This document shows positions 11,967-57,040 of a DNA stretch of 64,000 nucleotides, piece after piece; position 1 is the first letter of the stretch, and every line of letters starts with the position of its first letter. Under the pieces are notes generated by a model. It was not told the DNA's origin. It saw nothing but the letters and a program-made list of their open reading frames with translations, and ran no database searches. Origin of the DNA: Planctomycetota bacterium (GTDB lineage: Bacteria > Planctomycetota > GCA-002687715 > CAIWVZ01); the NCBI GenBank assembly GCA_044222185.1, contig JBGANV010000001.1, forward strand, positions 1,056,001 through 1,120,000, given 5' to 3'. A program made the position numbers and the translations under genes.

Positions 11967-12039
11967 GCCCGCGTAGCTCAGTTGGTAGAGCAGGTGATTC
12001 TTAATCACCGGGTCCCAGGTTCGAGTCCTGGCGCGGGCA
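11967..12039 (+). tRNA. tRNA-Lys(CTT), prophage integration target
   Basis: GCCCGCG/CGCGGGC stem, anticodon loop TTCTTAA. Confidence 0.95.
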
Positions 12040-12042
12040 TCG
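11993..12042 (+). repeat. attL core, 50-bp direct repeat
   Basis: GGTGATTCTTAATCACCGGGTCCCAGGTTCGAGTCCTGGCGCGGGCATCG, identical at 56991-57040. Confidence 0.97.
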
Positions 12043-45707: not shown

Positions 45708-46208
45708 TCACTGGAACGGGAGCTCCGGCCCCGCGCCGACAGCGGCGCGCAGGACGCTCTCGACGCGGTCTGACGCGAACTCACCGCACTCGATGACCGC
45801 GACCTCGATGAACGGCCGCTGCCCCTGCGGCACGATCCGCTTCGACACGGTCAGGGACTGGACCTGGCTGTCGTCCTCGTAGACGACGTCGTTCATGGCG
45901 TCGAGCACCGCCTTCGCCAGGTTGTCGACGTCGTAGCCGTTCTTGCCGATGTGCGGCGCGGCGGGAAGCGGCTCGCGCTTCCGCCACGTGGAGTGCGCGT
46001 GCTCGAAGCCGAAGCGAATCGTGACCTCGCATGGGCTCTTCATCGGTGGGAGCCCGCGCATCGCCCGACGCGCCTGGCCCGCGATGAACTCCGCGTAGAT
46101 CCGGCTCTTCGCTGGCTTCAGGACGCGAAGGTAGCCGTTGATCATCCTCGGGTTGCCACGGCGCCACGGTTCGGGAACACAGTCGACGGTGAAGTGCAGC
46201 GCGGTCAC
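45708..46208 (-). CDS. rusA: RusA-family Holliday junction resolvase
   Basis: DVDNLAKAVLDAMNDVVYEDDSQV signature. Confidence 0.9.
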   Translation of the reverse strand: MTALHFTVDCVPEPWRRGNPRMINGYLRVLKPAKSRIYAEFIAGQARRAMRGLPPMKSPCEVTIRFGFEHAHSTWRKREPLPAAPHIGKNGYDVDNLAKAVLDAMNDVVYEDDSQVQSLTVSKRIVPQGQRPFIEVAVIECGEFASDRVESVLRAAVGAGPELPFQ

Positions 46209-47209
46209 GAGGCCACCGCCTTCTCTGTCCTGCGGGCGGCCGCCATGGCGCGCTCCCTCGCCGCAACGATCTCCGGGTCGTTCGGGTCGACCGGCGGCGG
46301 CTCGTCGGCGGGCTTGGGTGTCGCCGACGGAGGCCTGCGCTTGCTCGCCGCTGCGACCGCCGCATCGATCCGGGCACTGAACGCGTGGATTGCCCAGCCG
46401 CGCTCCGCGATCCAATCGTCCCGGTCGGCCACGAAGGCCTCGATTGCGGCCTTGGCGCGGCGGACGTCGCCGCAGCAGCGGGAAAGCAGCTCGCGGAACA
46501 CGTCCCGGTGCCGCGACGTGTCGGTTTCTGGGCCGATTCCGTGGCGATCCTGCCGCGCATGCCGCCAGTGGCCGAGCAAATCGTCGATCGGATCGGGCGG
46601 TGCGGTGGGGTCCGACCGCGGCGCTGGGGCGTTGGGCGGAGTCGGCGCAGCCGAGCCCCGCGCCCCCCCTGCTCGGGGGGTTGGGGGGGACTGTTCTGTT
46701 CTGTTCTGTTCTGTGTTCGAGACTGTTCCGGTAACCGTATCCGATACTGTATCGGGAACTGTTCCTGACGTTACGGCGCCGAACGTTCGTTCCCACGTGG
46801 GACCGAACCAAGACTGATCCGACCACAGGTGACGGCGGAGCGATTCGATGTGGCGGTACTTCAGTTGGCTCTCCGGGAGCCCCTGCCAGGCCCGGAACCA
46901 CCCGAGGAGTTGCTTCTGGTTCCGCAGCTCCGCGAACTTCGGTCCGTTCGGCAACCGGATGACGCGCTTCTCGGGGTCGACCTCGACCATGCCCAGCCTC
47001 TCCAGGGCATCCATGTCGGCCTTCACTCGCGAGACGGGGCGGCGCCGGATCTCCGCCAGCGTGGCGACACCGCCGATCATCAGACCGGGCACGATCGTGG
47101 TCTGCGGGCCCGTGATGAGCGCGACCCAGAGCATCTGCTGGCTGTCGGTCAGCTGCACAAACTTCTCGTCGTCGTGCAGTCGAGGATCGATCTGACGATA
47201 GATCGCCAT
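46205..47209 (-). CDS. Phage replication initiator protein
   Basis: N-terminal YRQIDPRLHDDEKF winged-helix type; central repetitive linker typical of ori-containing initiators. Confidence 0.75.
   Translation of the reverse strand: MAIYRQIDPRLHDDEKFVQLTDSQQMLWVALITGPQTTIVPGLMIGGVATLAEIRRRPVSRVKADMDALERLGMVEVDPEKRVIRLPNGPKFAELRNQKQLLGWFRAWQGLPESQLKYRHIESLRRHLWSDQSWFGPTWERTFGAVTSGTVPDTVSDTVTGTVSNTEQNRTEQSPPTPRAGGARGSAAPTPPNAPAPRSDPTAPPDPIDDLLGHWRHARQDRHGIGPETDTSRHRDVFRELLSRCCGDVRRAKAAIEAFVADRDDWIAERGWAIHAFSARIDAAVAAASKRRPPSATPKPADEPPPVDPNDPEIVAARERAMAAARRTEKAVAS
46691..46770. repeat. Putative origin: (CTGTT)4 plus four degenerate 12-bp repeats
   Basis: ACTGTTCCGGTA/ACCGTATCCGAT/ACTGTATCGGGA/ACTGTTCCTGAC inside the initiator gene. 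Confidence 0.55.
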
Positions 47210-47337
47210 GTCCGTCTTCCCTTTCGCCCTGCGGGTGGTCGTCGCCAGATCGCCGAGCGATCCATCGCCTACCCACCGCTAAGCCGGCGCCCCCATTCAG
47301 CACCATCCGCCGCACCCGATCCACTCTCTTCCGAGCC

Positions 47338-48627
47338 CTACCCGCTCTCTTCCTGTGCAGGCTCCCGCGCCCGGGCATTCCTGCGCTTGGGAAGCTCATC
47401 GATGGCTTGTTCCCGGGCCCGCTGGGAGGCCTCCTCGATGTTCAGCCCGAAGCAATCCGCTGCGACGGGCAGAATACGCTCCGCGTGTCCCGGGTCGACG
47501 ATCCCGAACGCCAGGTCGAGCACGAGGGCCCGGAGCTCGCGCGGCTTCAGCTCCTCGAGGCTCGCTCGCGCGACGGGCGATGGGATCCCCCATTGCGCGA
47601 GGACCTCGATCGCCGAGGGAGCCGTCGAAAGGCAAAGCGCGAGCGCCACCCAGAACTCGTCCGTGAGTGGCTTCCCTGCGTCCACGCTCTGGACCGCCTG
47701 GTCTCTCACGATCTCGAAGGTGCGGCGCTGCGTGGAGTGCCGCAGATGCGTGCGCCGCTGCGATGGCGTCAACGTCGGGCGCCGTGGAGTCCTGGTCGGC
47801 TCCTGCGCCGATCCCGAGACCCTCAGCGTCTCCGCCGCGGTCTTCGCCGCGTAGCAGACCGGGTCCACGCAGAGATTGTGGCCCTGCTCAGCGTCGAACA
47901 GCGAGAAGATCCGGTCCGCCCGCTTCGGGCACGAGCTGCACGGCCCCACGCCGGGCGTGATGTCGTCCTTCTCCGTGTCGAACGTGGCGTCATCGAGGGG
48001 CTTCAGGACGTTCCGCCGGATCCGCTGGCTCGCATCCGCGACGGAGACGGGTTCGCCGGACGAGACGACCTCGCCGAGAACCAGGCGCTGACCGTCCTCG
48101 GTCGGCATCCGGGCGACCAGCAGCGCGACTGCTGCGGTCATCCTGCCGGCCAGGAACGGTGGCCGCGCGTCCTCGATCAGCGACGTGAGCTGCAGCCGGC
48201 GGAAGACGTAGGCCCGCGACTTCGCCACCATCGCCGCGATCTCGTCGACGGACTTGCCGTGCTCCTCGCGGAGGATTCGGTAGCTCCGCGCCTCGTCGAG
48301 CGGATGGAGCTCATCCCGCTGCAGGTTCTCGGTCACCTGCACGGCGAGGACAGCGTCGGGAGCGTGGCGCGGCCAGACATCGCACGGAACCAGGGTCAGG
48401 CCGGCCTGCCGGGCCGCCATCCAGCGACGCTCGCCCGCGATGATGTCCCAGGCGTCGCCTCGACCCTCCGCCGGCTGCACGATGATGGGGCTGATCACGC
48501 CGAGCTTCGCGATGCTGCGCGCGAGCTCGGTGATCGATGCGGCATCGATGTATCGCCGCGGATTTCCGGTCGACGGCGCGAGCGCATCGACCGGCAGCAT
48601 GGTGATCTGACGATCGTCCACGGTCAC
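47338..48627 (-). CDS. ParB/RepB/Spo0J-family protein
   Basis: NPRR, ELARSI, IIAGERRWMAA, ENLQRDELHPLDEA; Cys cluster CSSCPKR...CVDPVC. Confidence 0.9.
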   Translation of the reverse strand: MTVDDRQITMLPVDALAPSTGNPRRYIDAASITELARSIAKLGVISPIIVQPAEGRGDAWDIIAGERRWMAARQAGLTLVPCDVWPRHAPDAVLAVQVTENLQRDELHPLDEARSYRILREEHGKSVDEIAAMVAKSRAYVFRRLQLTSLIEDARPPFLAGRMTAAVALLVARMPTEDGQRLVLGEVVSSGEPVSVADASQRIRRNVLKPLDDATFDTEKDDITPGVGPCSSCPKRADRIFSLFDAEQGHNLCVDPVCYAAKTAAETLRVSGSAQEPTRTPRRPTLTPSQRRTHLRHSTQRRTFEIVRDQAVQSVDAGKPLTDEFWVALALCLSTAPSAIEVLAQWGIPSPVARASLEELKPRELRALVLDLAFGIVDPGHAERILPVAADCFGLNIEEASQRAREQAIDELPKRRNARAREPAQEESG

Positions 48628-49133
48628 GCCTCCGCGGGAACTTCGTTTGGGACGTCCGCGGCCTGCGCGATCTCCGGAGCGGGCGCCGACGGGGGCGGCG
48701 GCTGCGGGACCGCGGCACCCTGCTCGGGCGGATCGGTCGGCGGCTTCAGAAGCTCTTGGATGATCCCGACCCGCCGGAGCACGAACCCCTTTGCCAGCCG
48801 GTGAGCCTTGTCTGCGATGACGAGCCCGGTGTACTCGTCGAGGAGTTCCTCTGGACACTGCTTCGGCAGCTTCATGACGGACTTGTCACGCTTATCCGCG
48901 GGCTTCTCGAACTCGTCCGCGAGCAGCTTTGCGCGCCGCCCGTCGTAGAACCGAGACGCCTTGCGGCGCGCGTCCGACAGTTCAGACGGCGTGCACATGA
49001 GGGCGTGCCCAGCGTTCTCCGCGAGCAGCCTGATCTCCCCCGTCAACTCGTACGGAATCGACTCGCGCTCCGACTTCGCTTCCGCCGCCGCGGGGGCTTG
49101 GCCCTGCGGCTCTTCGATCTTCTCTTCGCTCAT
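48624..49133 (-). CDS. Hypothetical phage protein
   Basis: GGGAGGG RBS; coupled to parB. Confidence 0.7.
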   Translation of the reverse strand: MSEEKIEEPQGQAPAAAEAKSERESIPYELTGEIRLLAENAGHALMCTPSELSDARRKASRFYDGRRAKLLADEFEKPADKRDKSVMKLPKQCPEELLDEYTGLVIADKAHRLAKGFVLRRVGIIQELLKPPTDPPEQGAAVPQPPPPSAPAPEIAQAADVPNEVPAEA

Positions 49134-49160
49134 GGTTTCCCTCCCCAGGGAACTCTCGAT

Positions 49161-49382
49161 TCAGCTCGCGACGCCGCACCAGGTCCCGGACGCCTCATTC
49201 GCGGAGTACGGGACGTCCTCCACCAAGTAGGAGTGGACGGCGCCGCCGTCCATGATCCGGTGCACCACCAGATCCGCGTTGTTGCCCTGGCGAACGAGGA
49301 CAACTTGGCCGGGCAAAGTCAGCCGCCCTTCGTCCGTGTCGAGCGTGTACCGAGCCGGCATTCCGATCTTCGCGTTCCACAT
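49161..49382 (-). CDS. Small hypothetical phage protein (73 aa)
   Basis: Start MWNAKIG behind a strong GGAGGT RBS. Confidence 0.65.
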   Translation of the reverse strand: MWNAKIGMPARYTLDTDEGRLTLPGQVVLVRQGNNADLVVHRIMDGGAVHSYLVEDVPYSANEASGTWCGVAS

Positions 49383-49399
49383 GCCGCACCTCCGTTTGA

Positions 49400-49915
49400 G
49401 AGCCTGGGTGTCCACGTTGAGAAAGGTGGAGCCATCCCCGCACCGTGCGGTGACGCGCGCCATGAACACCCAGGCCGAAATAGGCCGACCGCGAGTCTTC
49501 GTCGACGCACCGGTCCAGCCGGTTGTCCGCAACATGCGGAAACCGCTCGCGGTCGATGACGACGGCGGGATTCGAACCCGCCTCGTGCTCACTGCACGCG
49601 GTGACAGGAGCGACCCGTCTCCGGCGGCCGTCCTTTGCCGCTTCGTCGTCGAATGGCCGGGCTTCCACCGACCGCAGCGATTTCTCCTCGCCTCTGCGCA
49701 CGCGCCGATGCGATCTCCATGGCATCACGCGATAGCTGTGCGCTTTCATCGGATCGGCGGCGTCGTCCGCCATGGCGTAACCCGCCGATTGAATAGTGCG
49801 GGTGAGGGTGATCCCCGCGTCGGCGCCCGACTTCCCGGAAGGATTCATCCGGGCATGCCACGCTCTTCCGGTCACTGACCGGCAACCTTCAATGGTGTTT
49901 GATCCAACCAACGAT
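49400..49915 (-). ncRNA. Candidate multi-domain structured non-coding RNA
   Basis: Succession of long stems (49402-49475, 49486-49555, 49558-49650, 49655-49673 and more upstream); mismatches become G-U pairs on the minus strand. Confidence 0.55.
49557..49650 (-). ncRNA. Non-canonical tRNA-like cloverleaf RNA (94 nt)
   Basis: Perfect GACGACG/CGTCGTC acceptor stem + A; GCGGC/GCCGC D-arm with GG; long variable arm; GCGGG-TTCGAAT-CCCGC T-arm; anticodon arm only 4 bp with an 8-nt loop. Confidence 0.7.
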
Positions 49916-49919
49916 CCCG

Positions 49920-50453
49920 TCACCGTGCCGGCTCCGTCGTCGCGATACTTGGATTCGTGGCGCTGACCTTGAGCAGCGTGTCGCGCACCTTCTCGATTGT
50001 GCCGCCAGCGATCGACTTGATTGGGTTGGCAGTCCAGTCCCGCTCAACAAACTGGGCGACCGTCATCACGCCGGCGTCTGCAAGGATTCTTGCCCGCGCC
50101 GGCCCGACGATGCAGTCCAACGCCAGCTGCATCACGTCCCCACCAACCGCCTGGAGCCTTGGCCGCAGTCTCTCGATCAGCGCGGATGTCCTCTCCTCTT
50201 CGCGCTCCCTCCAGAACGCATTGATCTTCTCTCGCTCCTTCCGATCCCTCTCTTCGATCTGCTCGGAGAAGCCGACCTTCATCAGATCTCGAATTTCGGT
50301 GAGGACATATCGGGTGCTCCGCATCTCCTCAAAGACGTTCTCCAGCAGGCCGACGGTGATCATCTGTAGGAACCTCGGATCGCCAGAGGTGATGCGCCCA
50401 CCACCCCAGCCGAAGCATCCGTGTTTCCATTTGACGAACTCGGATTCCGTCAT
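49920..50453 (-). CDS. Hypothetical protein with a C-terminal RNA polymerase alpha-CTD-like domain
   Basis: LDCIVGPARARILADAGVMTVAQFV...IKSIAGGTIEKVRDTL resembles the alpha-CTD pattern. Confidence 0.5.
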   Translation of the reverse strand: MTESEFVKWKHGCFGWGGGRITSGDPRFLQMITVGLLENVFEEMRSTRYVLTEIRDLMKVGFSEQIEERDRKEREKINAFWREREEERTSALIERLRPRLQAVGGDVMQLALDCIVGPARARILADAGVMTVAQFVERDWTANPIKSIAGGTIEKVRDTLLKVSATNPSIATTEPAR

Positions 50454-50620
50454 TTCGCGCTCCCGAACAGTTCCTGCTGCCCATCCATCGTCAGCTCGGC
50501 GTCGACCTCGCGCTCCAGACGCTTCGCCTCGTCGAGCGCAGTCCGGTCCTTCTTGTCGAACCAGCGCTTCTGTGCGTCGCGCAGGCGCTTCACGAGGTCT
50601 CGGAATTCGGCGGTGGTCAT
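50450..50620 (-). CDS. Small helical phage protein ending QQELF
   Basis: ATGA coupling on both sides. Confidence 0.65.
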   Translation of the reverse strand: MTTAEFRDLVKRLRDAQKRWFDKKDRTALDEAKRLEREVDAELTMDGQQELFGSAK

Positions 50621-51018
50621 GCCTGGACCTCGACTTCGAACAGCCCCTGCGCGCCGCGGCACGGGATCGGGGTCGTCAGTGCGCGCGCATTGAACAGGAC
50701 CCACGCAAACCGACCCGCCGAGAAGTCGCCGAAGATCAACTCTCGCCCCGACCAGCACTCAGACTCGACCGGAACGCACCGGTCGATCGTCGCGACCGCA
50801 ACGATGGCGCCGTGAGCCATCGGCGGAAAATCGGCCACCGACTTGAGGATCCTCGCCTCACGAAGCAGCTCGCCGAACATTCCATCGTCGTCCGTCGTCT
50901 TGGACGCGTGGATAGCGATCGGGCCGCGGTACGAGGTCGACCAGCTCCGCGTCTCCACCTTCTTGAGGCCGCACGCAATGAGGTGAGCCCACGGCTGCCA
51001 AATCGAGATGGCTTTCAT
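50617..51018 (-). CDS. ASCH-domain protein
   Basis: MKAISIWQPWAHLIACGLKKVETRSW...YRGPIAIHA...RGAQGLF. Confidence 0.92.
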   Translation of the reverse strand: MKAISIWQPWAHLIACGLKKVETRSWSTSYRGPIAIHASKTTDDDGMFGELLREARILKSVADFPPMAHGAIVAVATIDRCVPVESECWSGRELIFGDFSAGRFAWVLFNARALTTPIPCRGAQGLFEVEVQA

Positions 51019-51230
51019 CGTGGTGTTCCGTTTGCGAACCGCTCGGGCAGCGGCACTCCGAGCACGTGGTTCCGGAAGCGAGCCTCGACCTCCGCGTCAG
51101 ACGTCGTCTTCTTGACGCACGCATAGCACATGATCGCGCCGCCGCGCCCGTATGGGCGCAGCTCCTTGATCTCTCCGCAGCCATCGCACTGCTGCGGTCC
51201 CTCGGTGGCCACGAACCCTCGCCCGCTCAC
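51015..51230 (-). CDS. Small zinc-finger phage protein
   Basis: CDGC...ELRPYG...CYAC. Confidence 0.7.
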   Translation of the reverse strand: MSGRGFVATEGPQQCDGCGEIKELRPYGRGGAIMCYACVKKTTSDAEVEARFRNHVLGVPLPERFANGTPR

Positions 51231-51820
51231 GCGACGACTCCGACCATCATCGCCTCGCAGATGAGCGCGCACGTCCTCACGTCCGCGAGCGCATCATGCG
51301 CCTGCCCCATCGTCGCGACGCCGAAGTACCTCGCGAGCGTCTCCAGCTGGAAGTTGGCCGGCAGTGCGATCCCGCGCTCGGTGAACCACCAGATCGATCG
51401 CTGGTAGGTGTCGAGCGGGTACCACCAGCACCCAGGCCAGAAGGCGCCGTTCAGCGCCTTGTCCATCATCGTGCGCAGACGTGGACCGTCGAAGCTCGCG
51501 AAGTTGTGACCCGCAAGGCGACACGCGATGTATGGGTTGCCGCGCTTCGAGACGAGCTGCATCCGCGCGTGCCGCTTCAGGAAGACCTGGAACTCGAGGG
51601 CGACGTCTCCCTCTGGCTTCGCGTCCTTCCACCTCTCCGCCGTGTACCCGTTGAGCTTCAATGCCTCGGGGTCGCAGGCCTGCGGCGCGAACTGGATCTT
51701 CCGCTCGAACGCGTCGACCTCCTGCCAGTTCTCGACCGCGATAGCGGCGATCTGGATGTTCGGATGGCGGTCCTCGACCCCGCCGGTCTCGAAGTCCACG
51801 AAGACGGTTCGGTCCTTCAC
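51227..51820 (-). CDS. DEDDh 3'-5' exonuclease (DnaQ-like)
   Basis: VDFETGG, GHNFASFD, LDT, HDALADV. Confidence 0.92.
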   Translation of the reverse strand: MKDRTVFVDFETGGVEDRHPNIQIAAIAVENWQEVDAFERKIQFAPQACDPEALKLNGYTAERWKDAKPEGDVALEFQVFLKRHARMQLVSKRGNPYIACRLAGHNFASFDGPRLRTMMDKALNGAFWPGCWWYPLDTYQRSIWWFTERGIALPANFQLETLARYFGVATMGQAHDALADVRTCALICEAMMVGVVA

Positions 51821-52057: not shown

Positions 52058-52540
52058 TCACGACGCCTTGCGCGGCTTCGCCTCACGCGGCGCGCGCGGC
52101 TTGCGTGGCTTTCGCGCCTTCTTCGTCGTCGTTGCGGCCGGGAGCAGTTTCACGTCACCGGGTTCGCCCGATGCGGGAAGCTGAACGGTGTCCATTCCGC
52201 TCGGGAGCGCGTCGACGACCTTCGGCCGCCGCTCGCGTTGCTTCTCCTTCGCCATCGCCGCAGCCTCTTCCTTGAAGAGGGGGACGTCCTTGGGGTCCGG
52301 AACGCGGTCGGCGTGCAGGCGCTCCGTCATGCACGCGGTGATGTCCTCGCGAAGCCCTGTCTGGACCTCCTTGCCGACATCGACGATCGACTTGTGGGGC
52401 GCGATCTCCTCCTCAATCAGGGCGATCGTGTGTTCCCGGTCGATCACCTCCTCGTCGGTCTTTGGAGTCCCAGGCGGGATCTGCACGACGAGCCGGCCGA
52501 TGGTCACCTGCATTCCTCGGGTTTTGCCGTACTTGCTCAC
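52058..52540 (-). CDS. Hypothetical phage protein
   Basis: GTGA-coupled ORF with a basic tail. Confidence 0.65.
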   Translation of the reverse strand: MSKYGKTRGMQVTIGRLVVQIPPGTPKTDEEVIDREHTIALIEEEIAPHKSIVDVGKEVQTGLREDITACMTERLHADRVPDPKDVPLFKEEAAAMAKEKQRERRPKVVDALPSGMDTVQLPASGEPGDVKLLPAATTTKKARKPRKPRAPREAKPRKAS

Positions 52541-53700
52541 GTGGTCACCTCTGCTTCCTTCAGCTTGTGCTCGCGAACCGACGTCGAACGCTTCTTCGTG
52601 GTCCCGTTCAGGGACTCGATCTCGCCCAGGACCTCCCGCTCGAGCTGGGAGATCTTCGCGCCGGTGTTCTGCGCGACGGCGCGCATGGCGCGGTTGATCG
52701 ATGCCTTCGACACGTCGAAGGTCACCGCCTTGTCGGCGATCTCATCGCCGAACTTCTTGCGGATGACGTGAAACGCCACTCCGCCATCGATGATCGTGGT
52801 CTCGCGCTCGCAGGGGCCGAGGCACGAACCGTGGCCGAGGTCGATCGGGGTCGACAGCGCGTACGTGCGCAGCGCCTCGTCGATGCGGTCGGTCGCCATC
52901 TTCAGAGCCTTCAGCGCATGCCATGCGCGCGCGGCCGTCTCGGGCGTCAGCTGGCCGGCGACGATCTCGACCGCATCCCCTGGCTTCTCCGCCAGGGCGC
53001 GCACGAGGTTCGTCTGGGCCGGGCACCACGCGAACGCCGGGCAGTAGCGGCAGTGCGCTCCCGTCGTGAGCTGCTTCGCGCCAGTCCCGATCTTCCCGAG
53101 CAGCTCGGCGAGCTCGCCGGCGAACATGTCGAGGTCGAACGCCTCGATCGTCTCCTGGTCCGCCCAGACCGTTCCGTCGTCCTTGATTCGGACGATCGCG
53201 ATGTGGGCCCGGGAACGGCCGTACGCGAGGCACGCGCAGAGCGCGTAGAAGCGCAGCTGCCAGTTGCGTCGCACAGGGGCGATGTCCGCCCAGCCCGTCT
53301 TGTAGTCGGCGATGACAACCGAATCGACCGTCAGGCCGACCACGTCGGCAGTCCCTGGGATCTCGCCCGGGGCGAGCGTGGCGTAGGCCTCCCGCCGGCT
53401 GAGGCCGCGCCCGATCTCACGGGCCGTGCCAGCAGCCGGGTCGTACGCGAACGCGACCTCCGCGGCGTAGGCGCCAGGGTCGCACGCGGGCAGGCGCCCG
53501 ACGTCGATCGCGGCGCAGGCCGGGCGGTGCTCCGAAGGCACTCGGGCGAGGGCCTCGTCGCGGCCGGCGCTGGTCACGTCCGCGAGGAACGCGTGAACCG
53601 CGGACCCGCGCTCGGAGTACTCCCCGATCGAATCCGCCTGGGGCATCGACACCGACGCCGGGCAGACCGAGATCCGCTGAAGGGATGAGGCGGAAATCAC
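52537..53700 (-). CDS. PD-(D/E)xK exonuclease (RecB/Cas4-like), RecT partner
   Basis: SASSLQRISVCPAS, RGSAVH, GTADVV...IADYKTG, QLRFYA, HCRYCP...CP. Confidence 0.85.
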   Translation of the reverse strand: MISASSLQRISVCPASVSMPQADSIGEYSERGSAVHAFLADVTSAGRDEALARVPSEHRPACAAIDVGRLPACDPGAYAAEVAFAYDPAAGTAREIGRGLSRREAYATLAPGEIPGTADVVGLTVDSVVIADYKTGWADIAPVRRNWQLRFYALCACLAYGRSRAHIAIVRIKDDGTVWADQETIEAFDLDMFAGELAELLGKIGTGAKQLTTGAHCRYCPAFAWCPAQTNLVRALAEKPGDAVEIVAGQLTPETAARAWHALKALKMATDRIDEALRTYALSTPIDLGHGSCLGPCERETTIIDGGVAFHVIRKKFGDEIADKAVTFDVSKASINRAMRAVAQNTGAKISQLEREVLGEIESLNGTTKKRSTSVREHKLKEAEVTT

Positions 53701-54728
53701 TTCGCACCGCCCTTCAGTGCGGTCTTCTTCTCCATGTAGGCGCGGCTGGCGTCGGCCTTGAGCGCATCCGGCAGCTTCGCAGCTTCGGCGGCCGCGGCCT
53801 TCAGGTCGCCGTCCGTCTTCGCCGCGGCGATCAGATCGAGGACTCGGCGAAGTTCAGGCGGGGTGCCGTCATCCTCGGGCTGGCTCGCTTCGGCGGCAAA
53901 GTCGGTGTGCTCGTCGATCGTCTGCGCCGGGGCCGGTGATGCCGCGGTTGCGGACTGGATGTCGGCGGCGACCATCGACGGCGGCGGCATATCGCCCACG
54001 TCACCGGAGGCATCCACATCGATGACGCGCTCCATCGCGGGTGTCGTCTTGAGCCACTTGTAGAGCGCGCGAACGGCCGTCTTGCAGCACATCTCGGCCG
54101 AGCTGGTGTTCCACGGGTTGTCGTCGCGTTCGTTGAACGTGTGCTGTGGACGCTTGGCGTGGATCTCGTCGACGCTGAGGTATCGGAACACCGGACGCCC
54201 CGTCACCGGGTGCGCGACGGCGTAGGCGCCAACGATCTCGCCGCGCGAACCCATCGCCGGGATGTGCCGCAGCGACGACTCCGTCCCGAGGCGGATCTGG
54301 AAGTCGTCGGCAGCGTGAACGCAGTGCGCCTCGATCCCGCTGTAGAACCCGGAATCGAGGGCGATGTCGATCAGCCCCTTGTAGTCCGGGATCAGCGTCA
54401 CCTTTCCCTTGAACGGGACCAAGTGCGCGCGTCCGCCGGGACCACCTGTGCAGGACAGCCCGAGCTCCGCACAGTTCATGACGGCCGCGTAGAGCGTGGT
54501 GCGGTCGCAGTTGAGCAGGTCTGGATTGCGAACGCACGCCATCACCACCATGCGCGCGAACCGCTTCGGATCCCCAAGCTTCGGCGGAAGCAGTGAAGCG
54601 ATCTGCGTCAACTTCGCGGAGAGTTCCTGTTCGAGCTGCCGGACCTGAACGGAACGCTGTTCGTCTGGCTTCACCACTGCCGAGCCGGTGGACCTGTTCG
54701 CGAACGGACGTGTTGCTGGTGCGTTCAT
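53697..54728 (-). CDS. recT: RecT-family single-strand annealing protein
   Basis: CAELGL, AHLVPF, YKGLID, GAYAVA, EMCCKTAVR. Confidence 0.92.
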   Translation of the reverse strand: MNAPATRPFANRSTGSAVVKPDEQRSVQVRQLEQELSAKLTQIASLLPPKLGDPKRFARMVVMACVRNPDLLNCDRTTLYAAVMNCAELGLSCTGGPGGRAHLVPFKGKVTLIPDYKGLIDIALDSGFYSGIEAHCVHAADDFQIRLGTESSLRHIPAMGSRGEIVGAYAVAHPVTGRPVFRYLSVDEIHAKRPQHTFNERDDNPWNTSSAEMCCKTAVRALYKWLKTTPAMERVIDVDASGDVGDMPPPSMVAADIQSATAASPAPAQTIDEHTDFAAEASQPEDDGTPPELRRVLDLIAAAKTDGDLKAAAAEAAKLPDALKADASRAYMEKKTALKGGAK

Positions 54729-55447
54729 CGCGCTCTCTTTTCTGCGACGCTCTGCGTCGGGAAGAATCGGACGCCGTCCGGCGCCGATGCCCCGGATTTC
54801 CCGAGGCGGGCCATCTGGTTGAGCTTCGTCATGTCCGCCTGGACAAGGACGATCGTCGGGTGCGCGATCTGCCACCGGCAGAGCGCCAGGATGTCGGTCA
54901 GCTCGGCGGACCACGTCTCGCGAAGCTGGATCGGAGCCGCCTTCGGAACCACCGGCGGCGGGACGTAGCGAGCGACCTCGACGCGAGGAGCCTCGATCAC
55001 GATCGGCTCCGCGCGGACCGCGTCGGCCTCCATGGCCTGGCCTGCGTCCTCGAGCATCGCGGCCGTCGCCGCCTGCTCCTCGCGAGCCTTCTGTTCTGCG
55101 GCTTCGCGCTCTGCCCGTGCGCGGGCTTCAGCCTCTCGCTGGAGGCGGGCCTGCTCCTCGCGGGCCTTCCTGGCCTGCTCCCGCTGGTAGTCCTTGATCT
55201 GCTCGTCGATCGTCTCAACGATCGCCTGAAGCGGATCGAGGTAGCTGCGCTCCTGCGCGAGAGTCTGCCGCTTCGCCTCGTCCTGCGCCTGCTTGATCGG
55301 CTTGAACGTCTCCGTGACCTGCCGGATCAGCGCCTTCGCTTCGCTCCGAATGTTCGCGGCGGCCGTCAGCGAGGCGTCGTCGGTCACGACGATCGAGCCG
55401 GCTCGCTCGCGCAGGGTCGTCTGCTGTGTCGCGAGCTCGGTGGTCAT
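54725..55447 (-). CDS. Coiled-coil phage protein upstream of recT
   Basis: Long E/A/R-rich coiled coil, LRETWSAE, PDGVRFF. Confidence 0.75.
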   Translation of the reverse strand: MTTELATQQTTLRERAGSIVVTDDASLTAAANIRSEAKALIRQVTETFKPIKQAQDEAKRQTLAQERSYLDPLQAIVETIDEQIKDYQREQARKAREEQARLQREAEARARAEREAAEQKAREEQAATAAMLEDAGQAMEADAVRAEPIVIEAPRVEVARYVPPPVVPKAAPIQLRETWSAELTDILALCRWQIAHPTIVLVQADMTKLNQMARLGKSGASAPDGVRFFPTQSVAEKRAR

Positions 55448-55999: not shown

Positions 56000-56467
56000 T
56001 CAATTCGTCGCCGCCTCGCGCGCCCTTGGCCGGTACTGAAAACCACGCTCCCGCCGGATTCGCGCGTACCGGTTGCGCTCCCACCGAGCGCGGCACGTCT
56101 TGCACTGGCGGAAACCCCGGCTGTTGATCTGCGTGTTGCCGCGCGTGAACTCGTGTCCGTGGGCGCAGTGGGTCTGGGCCGAGGCGCTCGTGGTAGGGCT
56201 CAGTCCGCGGCGGACGTTCTCGGTTGCCGAGACCAGCTCCATGTGCGCGACGTTCACGCAGCCCCGCTGACGGCAGAGGTGGTCAACCGTCATTCCCGCA
56301 GGAATCGAGCCGCGAAGATGCTCCCAGGCGACGCGGTGAACGAGCCTGGACCGACCGCAGCCGACACCGATCGTCCCGTAGCCCTTGGACTGCTTCGCGC
56401 CTGTGAAGAGGATGCAGCCGTCGGGGCCCGCCTCAGTCTTCGCCATCATCCGGTGGAAGGGGCTCAC
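56000..56467 (-). CDS. HNH endonuclease
   Basis: GYG...VHRVAW...VDHLC...CVNVAHMELVSATEN; C-terminal THCAHGH...CKTC. Confidence 0.9.
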   Translation of the reverse strand: MSPFHRMMAKTEAGPDGCILFTGAKQSKGYGTIGVGCGRSRLVHRVAWEHLRGSIPAGMTVDHLCRQRGCVNVAHMELVSATENVRRGLSPTTSASAQTHCAHGHEFTRGNTQINSRGFRQCKTCRARWERNRYARIRRERGFQYRPRAREAATN

Positions 56468-56706
56468 GCTTCGAACTCCGCAGTCGCGATCAGTCCGTTG
56501 ATCAGCAGGTCGCGGAACTCGTCGCGCGTGATCCCGAGCGTGGTGCACAGCCGGTCGACGCTTCGCTTGCGAGGCCAGCAGCCGCGATGTGCGAGGCAGA
56601 CGTCGGCCGGCGGAACCTTCGCGGCGCGGGCGAGGTCAGCGTCGAACGTGAAGCCCTTGTCCAGGCGAACCTGGCGCAAGGTCGGAGCCTTGATGGATAC
56701 AGCCAT
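56464..56706 (-). CDS. Cro-like XRE HTH protein, first gene of the early operon
   Basis: LRQVRLDKG...DLARAAKV...PRKRSVDRLCTTLGI. Confidence 0.75.
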   Translation of the reverse strand: MAVSIKAPTLRQVRLDKGFTFDADLARAAKVPPADVCLAHRGCWPRKRSVDRLCTTLGITRDEFRDLLINGLIATAEFEA

Positions 56707-56990: not shown

Positions 56991-57040
56991 GGTGATTCTT
57001 AATCACCGGGTCCCAGGTTCGAGTCCTGGCGCGGGCATCG
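56991..57040 (+). repeat. attR core (duplicated 3' half of tRNA-Lys)
   Basis: Identical to 11993-12042. Confidence 0.97.

Follow-up and report, generated by a model that had tools for sequence, protein, structure and literature searches.

The region from 49400 to 49941, read on the minus strand, is best explained as a rare, non-coding and tRNA-derived RNA element that would be carried within the early-operon transcript of a prophage, and this is a reading that we hold with moderate confidence. It is supported by folding energies beyond those of shuffled sequences (z of about -3.5), by likeness to tRNA, by a foreign contig in which the two tRNA-like ends lie close together, by the conservation of a core sequence and by the lack of a coding signature. 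Throughout, the window is the whole stretch of 64,000 nucleotides that was analysed. Within it lies a prophage of some 45 kb whose limits are a 50-bp direct repeat at 11993-12042 and 56991-57040, and this repeat is the 3' part of tRNA-Lys(CTT). The minus strand is the coding strand for all of the phage genes examined, among them the small and large terminase, portal, major head, tail and tape-measure genes. The genes and reading frame that give the element its setting are as follows.

53697-54914, minus strand: RecT
52537-53700, minus strand: PD-(D/E)XK exonuclease
51227-51820, minus strand: DnaQ-like exonuclease
50617-51018, minus strand: ASCH protein
49920-50453, minus strand: upstream gene of 177 aa
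49195-49923, minus strand: open reading frame of 242 codons (P0001) that covers the whole element
49161-49382, minus strand: downstream gene of 73 aa, with its ATG at 49382 and a GGAGG ribosome-binding site at 49389-49393
47338-48858, minus strand: ParB-like protein
45708-47399, minus strand: RusA fusion

The upstream gene has no Pfam or PHROG family and its stop codon falls inside the first part of the element. The downstream gene has GC contents of 0.64, 0.44 and 0.88 at its three codon positions, and from about 49460 downward the codon-usage score is positive only in the frame of this gene. There is no recognizable sigma-70-like promoter or intrinsic terminator in 48800-50600, and the element would presumably be transcribed together with the operon. 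From 5' to 3', its parts are as follows.

49919-49941, minus strand: segment A, resembling the 5' half of a tRNA, with GACGACG (acceptor 5' strand) and then a D-like stretch
49799-49891, minus strand: conserved core of 93 nt, with the hairpins CCGGUC/GACCGG, CCCGGA/UCCGGG, GUCGG/CCGAC and GCGGG/CCCGC
49651-49798, minus strand: variable middle, with the third GACGACG at 49761-49767, the ATCGGCGG/CCGCCGAT stem and a hairpin at 49655-49673
49557-49650, minus strand: tRNA-like five-way junction, as drawn in the minimum free energy (MFE) fold
49486-49555, minus strand: three-way junction closed by a perfect 10-bp stem, part of a domain spanning 49395-49560
49402-49475, minus strand: long hairpin with a 15-bp outer stem, just upstream of the ribosome-binding site of the next gene

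Segment A shares sequence with the end of the upstream ORF (its last seven codons plus the TGA), and the GGAG and GTG that would be the start of ORF 49195-49923 also fall within it.

The stems that the original prediction listed for this gap all exist where it placed them. The 15-bp stem at 49475-49402 includes two U-G pairs, the perfect 10-bp stem at 49555/49486 closes the three-way junction, and the hairpin GGUCGG-UGGAAGC-CCGGCC is present at 49673-49655. The CCGGTC/GACCGG, CCCGGA/TCCGGG, ATCGGCGG/CCGCCGAT and ATTGAA/TTCAAT pairings occur once each, at the expected places. Taken as a whole, the 516 nt of 49400-49915 fold on the minus strand with a z of -3.75 and none of 100 dinucleotide shuffles is as good, while the excess is less clear on the plus strand (z of -2.22, with four of 100 shuffles as good). 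The same test was made domain by domain, with 200 shuffles per part on both strands.

49553-49652, tRNA-like domain: z -3.46 (minus), -3.72 (plus); 0/200 shuffles as good on the minus strand
49395-49560, downstream leader: z -3.46 (minus), -3.26 (plus); 1/200 shuffles as good on the minus strand
49795-49945, upstream 151 nt: z -0.57 (minus), +0.10 (plus)
49653-49794, middle: z -1.07 (minus), -0.13 (plus)

Similarly, when 48101-51500 is scanned in 66 windows, each of 150 nt, the four lowest z values all fall in 49401-49700. The excess folding is thus local to two domains, which means that the 3' half is structured beyond chance and that the short pairings of the 5' half are not. The earlier description of the region as packed with stems therefore holds for 49553-49652 and 49395-49560, but the upstream half folds no better than its shuffles. 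The two G-U pairs had also been taken to mark the minus strand. Because both strands fold about equally well, these pairs do not set the strand, and the minus strand is indicated only by the T-loop, which reads UUCGAAU, and by the way the operon runs.

In the tRNA-like domain, the T-arm, GCGGG-UUCGAAU-CCCGC (49581-49565), is perfect and of textbook form, with a loop that fits the UUCRANY pattern, and it is followed directly by CGUCGUC and then by A49557 in the position of the discriminator. An acceptor helix of 7 bp (GACGACG/CGUCGUC) is formed between 49644-49650 and 49558-49564 and is stacked on the 5-bp T-stem. The sequence of the acceptor/T branch can be drawn in either of two ways, as 8/4 (GACGACGG/CCGUCGUC with CGGG/CCCG) or as 7/5. 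When the nearest GACGACG is used, the resulting 94-nt five-way junction also has a D-like hairpin (GCGGC-8-GCCGC) and a long arm with GGG in its loop, and an extra 5-bp hairpin, CGUGC-AGUGA-GCACG, precedes the T-arm. An anticodon stem of 5 bp with a 7-nt loop carrying U33 is absent from the domain. In its place the local fold offers two alternatives, an arm of 9-10 bp whose loop has 5 nt and a 4-bp stem whose loop has 8 nt, and the anticodon arm is almost empty in the Rfam alignment. Since there is no 7-nt anticodon loop with U33, the region 49557-49650 is tRNA-like and is not a decodable tRNA.

With default settings ARAGORN finds four tRNAs in the window and neither a tRNA nor a tmRNA at the element, and nothing at the element reaches an Rfam threshold under permissive filters. 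The permissive Rfam runs return 7 and 5 weak matches there, respectively. The top match is tRNA-Sec (24.6 bits, E of 0.016, against a gathering score of 47) and the second is mascRNA (18.1 bits), and both lie on 49557-49633. The element's T-arm is alike at 20 of 22 nt to that of the host tmRNA, which is canonical, is encoded elsewhere in the genome with the tag ANNNYALAA, and is detected by RF00023, a model that does not detect the element.

The complement of the acceptor 3' strand, GACGACG, is present in three upstream copies, at 49941, 49767 and 49650. When introns are allowed and the threshold is relaxed to 85%, ARAGORN uses the farthest of these copies and reports a tRNA-Pro(GGG) at 49557-49941 with an insert of 292 nt. 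Ensemble calculations give this distal pairing, between segment A and 49558-49564, a probability of about 0.42, and they give the local pairing about 0.43, plus 0.11 in a shifted register. A fold that is forced to form the distal bracket costs only 2.1 kcal/mol relative to the MFE, and the bracket's two 'exons' have no counterpart among the host tRNAs.

Contigs from other metagenomes bear on whether these distant pieces belong together. Logan contigs of four other metagenome runs were compared with 48600-50500, and record 12 of run X5 (1612 nt) matches 49941-49919 and 49581-49556 collinearly with one mismatch in each piece, although these pieces are only 23 and 26 nt long, and a joint with fewer than 30 nt on one side is often derived from another organism. 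Only 61 nt separate the two pieces in this contig, compared with 337 in the window, and beyond both match ends the contig is unlike the window. The outer limits of the matches, 49941 and 49556, fall within 1 nt of the ends of the relaxed ARAGORN model. In addition, the predicted protein P0004, a relative described below, carries the peptide DDGAGTVTG ahead of its second T-arm, and this is the translation of 49941-49915. These two observations indicate that the 5' half and the T-arm with its 3' end belong together elsewhere, some 110-150 nt apart. In the window and in the L011/P0005 relative, a diverged copy of the 5' half is located at the very start of the element, ahead of the core. The 23-mer, with up to three mismatches, is found in 36 of 401 genomes of the phylum, compared with four for the reversed control. 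Runs X4, X6 and X7 contain only short pieces identical to the window plus chance pieces of low identity.

Relatives are few. When the 242-aa translation of the ORF is run with full HMMER against 1.84 billion representative proteins, three matches are obtained at E up to 0.001, namely P0005 (133 aa), P0004 (310 aa) and an unrelated repetitive protein, and a word-index search with the same query finds P0004 only. Both P0005 and P0004 have a high content of Arg, Ser, Gly, Ala and Pro and belong to no family, and against them the variable middle, 49651-49798, can be aligned only in short islands. One island common to the ORF of the window and these two proteins reads SVTGRA.HA.MNPS.KSGADAGI.LTRT, and a second, FDD...AGS[NT]PAVV, corresponds to the T-arm flanked by the two strands of the local acceptor, written as protein. 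Indels of 12 to 24 codons separate the two islands.

DNA for the 5' part of the P0005 locus comes from L011, a phage-like metagenome contig of 1528 nt, and the core there is identical to that of the window (49891-49799) at 84 of 93 nt. The genes upstream in L011 encode a winged-helix-like protein and a small Cys-rich protein and are unrelated to the gene upstream in the window. A core that is conserved amid unrelated flanking genes indicates that the element is a module of its own. The CCGGUC/GACCGG hairpin is the same in both sequences, whereas the CCCGGA/UCCGGG hairpin shows in L011 one compensatory change, from C-G to U-A, plus one change that breaks a pair. A Trp codon in P0004 would imply a U-G intermediate at this hairpin, as judged from the protein. 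At the DNA level the comparison covers two core sequences, from the window and L011, and the leader (49400-49555) is known from the window alone.

The element is rare, being represented by the window, three protein or DNA relatives and one contig that matches at its ends only. There is no DNA relative among 50,697 phage records searched with blastn, and scans of viral contigs with patterns for the element or with the flanking proteins found none. In species-representative genomes, peptide patterns matched 77 stretches of which none was confirmed, and the five matches to a 23-nt pattern all looked like unrelated coding sequence. A DNA search of 61 related genomes returned the element's own genome and one T-arm-like match of 40 nt at 85% identity, where no tRNA is present. 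A second copy was not found in the element's own genome, and among 23 genomes of the class the acceptor/T-arm pattern occurs only in that genome. P0005 as a query finds only itself, and the antisense ORF 49252-49878 has no protein relatives. A 31-nt match to segment A, at C1:816119-816149, sits in seemingly ordinary coding sequence and was set aside.

The chief alternative is that ORF 49195-49923, or its first 125-170 codons, encodes a fast-evolving and probably disordered phage protein that is translationally coupled to the upstream gene, in which case the hairpins would be by-products of its DD and AGSxPAVV motifs. We regard this as possible, if somewhat unlikely, and consider that the ORF is probably not a gene. 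The original prediction had held that the gap contains no convincing protein. This is a judgement, for a frame does cover the gap, and its GTG start overlaps the upstream TGA as GTGA, with a GGAG located 8 nt before the GTG. The L011 copy has a comparable start, with an ATGA overlap and a GGAG ahead of a second ATG. No stop codon interrupts the frame across the element in the window or in any of the three relatives (P0004, P0005 and L011), an observation that is partly biased by the discovery of these relatives via protein searches, and the indels between P0004 and P0005 preserve it. Moreover, the three GACGACG copies and the start of the T-arm at 49581 are in phase, with spacings of 360, 186 and 69 nt. 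The 84-nt spacing in X5 is also a multiple of three, and by our own arithmetic the chance of such an in-phase set is roughly 1 in 81. The codon-usage score of the frame is positive (4.7 to 8.3) over 49464-49703, and its amino-acid composition is intermediate, scoring 0.087 where real genes score 0.162 and translations of off-frame sequence -0.157. Finally, the genetic code implies that the peptide AGS[NT]PA alone would force four of the five T-stem pairs.

Other observations argue against the production of such a protein. The frame has no stop until 188 nt inside the next gene, and in this overlap its own codon score falls to between -6 and -18 while the frame of the next gene is clearly the coding one. 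The GC3 of the ORF, 0.63-0.73, lies under that of all confident genes (0.77-0.94 in confident or neighbouring genes, and 0.78-0.94 in the reference set of 50 ORFs kept by the filter). In the core, the GC contents at the three positions of the ORF frame are 0.51, 0.66 and 0.68, so that GC2 exceeds GC1, unlike the host order of GC3 > GC1 > GC2 with a GC3 near 0.8-0.9, and in the L011 copy GC2 is 0.66 compared with 0.48-0.50 in the neighbouring L011 genes. The codons used in the T-loop, GGU and AAU, are likewise not the GC-rich choices.

The pattern of substitution also speaks against a protein. Between the window and L011, the nine substitutions in the core, which is 90% identical, amount to two synonymous and five non-synonymous codon changes, although these are small numbers, and the five replacements (W/R, R/C, G/R, T/P and G/E) are radical. 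There is no synonymous excess in the core in any frame on either strand, and over 125 aligned nt the substitutions at the three codon positions number 9, 7 and 9. Homologues that keep a reading frame rather than base pairs would count against the original prediction, and in part they do so, with the frame open in all three relatives and the motif spacings in multiples of three. The ORF product belongs to no Pfam or PHROG family, its top score in an Atlas search (0.79) is within noise, and an AlphaFold2 model has a mean pLDDT of 39.3 and no secondary structure, although an alignment of only three rows makes this weak evidence. The similarity to X5 ends exactly at the tRNA-like ends and takes in 18 nt upstream of the GTG.

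When the FDD..PAVV segment of P0005 is back-translated at random, default ARAGORN calls a tRNA in 10 of 20000 sequences, compared with none of 20000 for segments of real proteins, none of 20000 for shuffled residues and one of 20000 for the P0004 segment. Some of these calls use a perfect GAYGAYG acceptor, and some have an anticodon arm centred on UGGGC. On balance, P0004, P0005 and the ORF of the window are probably gene-caller read-through of tRNA-like DNA. One candidate cause for the regular phase is that the stretch might be kept translatable for ribosome cover, with no selection acting on the peptide; this is pure conjecture on our part.

With the RNA reading preferred, the closest description found is that of irregular tRNAs and allo-tRNAs, which, according to Mukai et al. 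(2017; PMC5389517), occur in Acidobacteria, other bacteria and their phages and were found with the tRNA-Sec model. Their extra arms are long, their acceptor branches can be 8/4 and their junctions can have five stems; on mobile DNA they are arranged in polycistrons, and some do not function in translation (PMC5389517). The element shares with the RNAs described there detection by the tRNA-Sec model below its threshold, a long extra arm, a possible five-stem junction and occurrence in polycistrons of irregular tRNAs carried by mobile DNA, and its acceptor/T branch can be drawn as 8/4, though equally as 7/5 (PMC5389517). It differs from those described there in the absence of a 7-nt anticodon loop with U33, in having A73 rather than G/U73, in the 93-nt conserved non-tRNA core and extra 5' half that precede it, and in that toxin-antitoxin genes were not seen adjoining it (PMC5389517).

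Other known systems are less similar. In tmRNA (RF00023), as here, a tRNA-like acceptor and T-arm could bracket an internal RNA of about 300 nt, but the element has no G3-U70 pair, no tag frame that ends in a stop and no recognizable pseudoknots. Phage RNAs that are processed by RNase P include C4 of P1 and P7 and CI of P4. Like these RNAs and the mascRNA at the 3' end of MALAT1, the element has a cloverleaf-like fold in a longer transcript that could recruit tRNA-end nucleases to yield a small stable RNA. Its scores are far under the gathering thresholds, and it has no match to the C4 family. The original prediction had compared the region with GOLLD and ROOL, and the shared trait is a large non-coding prophage stretch that adjoins or contains tRNA-like sequence. 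The element differs in that there is no Rfam match to GOLLD, ROOL, tmRNA or group I or group II introns at E up to 10, and the element is much smaller and is structured beyond chance only in part.

The original prediction had also offered two possibilities, a novel large non-coding RNA or a precursor of several small RNAs. The tRNA-like domain, the structured leader, the conserved core and the lack of a synonymous excess speak for a non-coding RNA, but the frame is kept in relatives and the one compensatory change stands beside a disruptive one. Of the two possibilities, the polycistronic small-RNA precursor fits better than a single large RNA of the GOLLD/ROOL kind, because there is no Rfam match, structure in the 5' half is unremarkable and the pieces seem to derive from tRNA.

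By comparison with tRNA-like processing signals, we propose a role in RNA processing. The transcript would present, in 5' to 3' order, the segment resembling a tRNA 5' half, the 93-nt core with its spacer, the irregular tRNA-like domain and the leader made of a junction plus a hairpin. Within this arrangement, the irregular domain, with its canonical T-arm, an acceptor helix of 7-8 bp and no usable anticodon loop, may be recognized by host RNase P at the 5' end of the acceptor and by a 3' tRNA-end nuclease after A49557. Cutting of the polycistronic RNA at this fold would part the upstream message from the downstream one. Perhaps a stable small RNA is released at the same time, which would be about 95 nt long, or about 385 nt with the core included should the helix be closed by segment A. 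Two alternative folds are conceivable, since there is one 3' acceptor strand and it could pair with either of two upstream GACGACG copies. The stems, the likeness to tRNA, the conservation of the core at the nucleotide level and the lack of a coding signature are observed, and transcription, processing and any function of a released RNA are inferred.

Another possibility is that a phage tRNA gene cluster has decayed here, or that recombination has left a scar, so that duplicated tRNA halves and filler would now serve for spacing only, and we judge this to be improbable. It would account for the presence of three copies of the acceptor 5' strand and one of the 3' strand, for the lack of a usable anticodon loop, for the failure of default tRNA finders and Rfam thresholds, and for the great rarity of the element. 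The C-terminal part of P0004 also resembles a translated tRNA-Ser-like gene (score of 50, compared with at most 41 for eight control proteins), which suggests a tRNA cluster in that relative; the ORF of the window and P0005, aligned to translated host tRNAs, score no better than control proteins. Against it, the core is 90% identical, with sharp borders, in contigs that are otherwise unrelated, the T-arm and acceptor are intact in all relatives and the leader domain is strongly structured.

The non-coding element that we prefer also permits a bolder version, which we put forward as distinctly improbable. The 385 nt of 49557-49941 might represent a new phage RNA class in which a tRNA-like bracket, made up of segment A, the T-arm and the 3' acceptor strand, scaffolds the 93-nt core as cargo. 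Its single 3' acceptor strand would switch between the distal and the local GACGACG, and according to conditions the host's tRNA-processing enzymes would free the whole cargo RNA or a tRNA mimic of 95 nt, giving an architecture like that of tmRNA with a different function.

It is highly improbable that 49557-49941 is one gene, whether a tRNA with a self-splicing intron or a tmRNA-like RNA that brackets a functional internal domain, for although the relaxed tRNA-Pro(GGG) call with its 292-nt insert, the joining of both ends across 61 nt in X5, the bracket helix at a probability of about 0.42 with its forced fold so near the MFE, and a length of about 385 nt, which is typical of tmRNA, would all suit it, the group I, group II and tmRNA models are unmatched at E up to 10, the tmRNA mode of ARAGORN is negative at the element even at a 60% threshold and RF00023 misses the locus, pair 3-70 is C-G rather than G3-U70, the sole frame open throughout has no stop to end a tag, the 5' exon in the ARAGORN model ends in G rather than U (junction cgttg / gggtc), and the bracket faces competition from a local acceptor of 7 bp at 49644-49650.

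If the ORF were real, this region would be an ordinary phage ORFan and of little interest. The entries P0004 and P0005 in public catalogues are probably read-through of tRNA-like DNA, which serves as a practical warning. If the RNA reading is true, then this phage carries, midway through an operon, a conserved RNA that adjoins or lies within a tRNA-like scaffold, and the 93-nt core would be a new and rare RNA motif. The element would then join the few known examples of tRNA mimicry that serves RNA processing or acts as a decoy instead of decoding.

There is a perfect direct repeat of 50 bp at positions 11993-12042 and 56991-57040 of the window, and it comprises the 3' part of tRNA-Lys(CTT). 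The two copies are the attL and attR sites of a prophage of approximately 45 kb (12043-56990), and the tRNA-Lys(CTT) gene is its integration target. The putative tRNA-like RNA element (49400-49941, minus strand) lies some 7 kb inward from the right end of this prophage, among the following genes of the early operon.

56000-56548, minus strand: HNH endonuclease gene (PHROG 826, E 3e-47)
48624-49133, minus strand: 169-aa ORF preceding the ParB-like ORF
47338-48858, minus strand: ParB-like ORF of 506 aa, with ParB domains from residue 84 on
45708-47399, minus strand: RusA fusion gene, with the RusA Holliday-junction resolvase domain at residues 414-533

The HNH endonuclease gene is located close to the right prophage end, where the early operon begins. 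As listed, the ParB-like ORF overlaps the 169-aa ORF by approximately 235 nt, and the true ParB start is probably downstream of the listed one. The roughly 400 residues that are N-terminal to the RusA domain have no family match.

The T-arm of the element is identical at 20 of 22 positions to that of a tmRNA encoded by the host:

C1:1034122-1034473, approximately 22 kb ahead of the window start: canonical tmRNA with the tag ANNNYALAA

Within the element, the loop CAGUGA is common to a hairpin of the conserved core (49868-49882) and another in the tRNA-like domain (49585-49599). This recurrence may be coincidental, or the loop may be a protein-binding site present twice.

Elsewhere in the host genome, outside the window, ARAGORN at default settings makes two 'tRNA-???' calls of 95-99 nt (C6:67202-67296 and C14:193119-193217) with four-base anticodons (caag and gcac). 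These could be irregular tRNAs or spurious predictions.

Residues ~257-279 of P0004, a 310-aa catalogue protein that probably represents read-through of tRNA-like DNA, align with the translated T-arm region of a tRNA-Ser-like sequence (score 50; none of eight control proteins scored above 41). This match hints at an additional tRNA gene downstream of the element on the P0004 contig.
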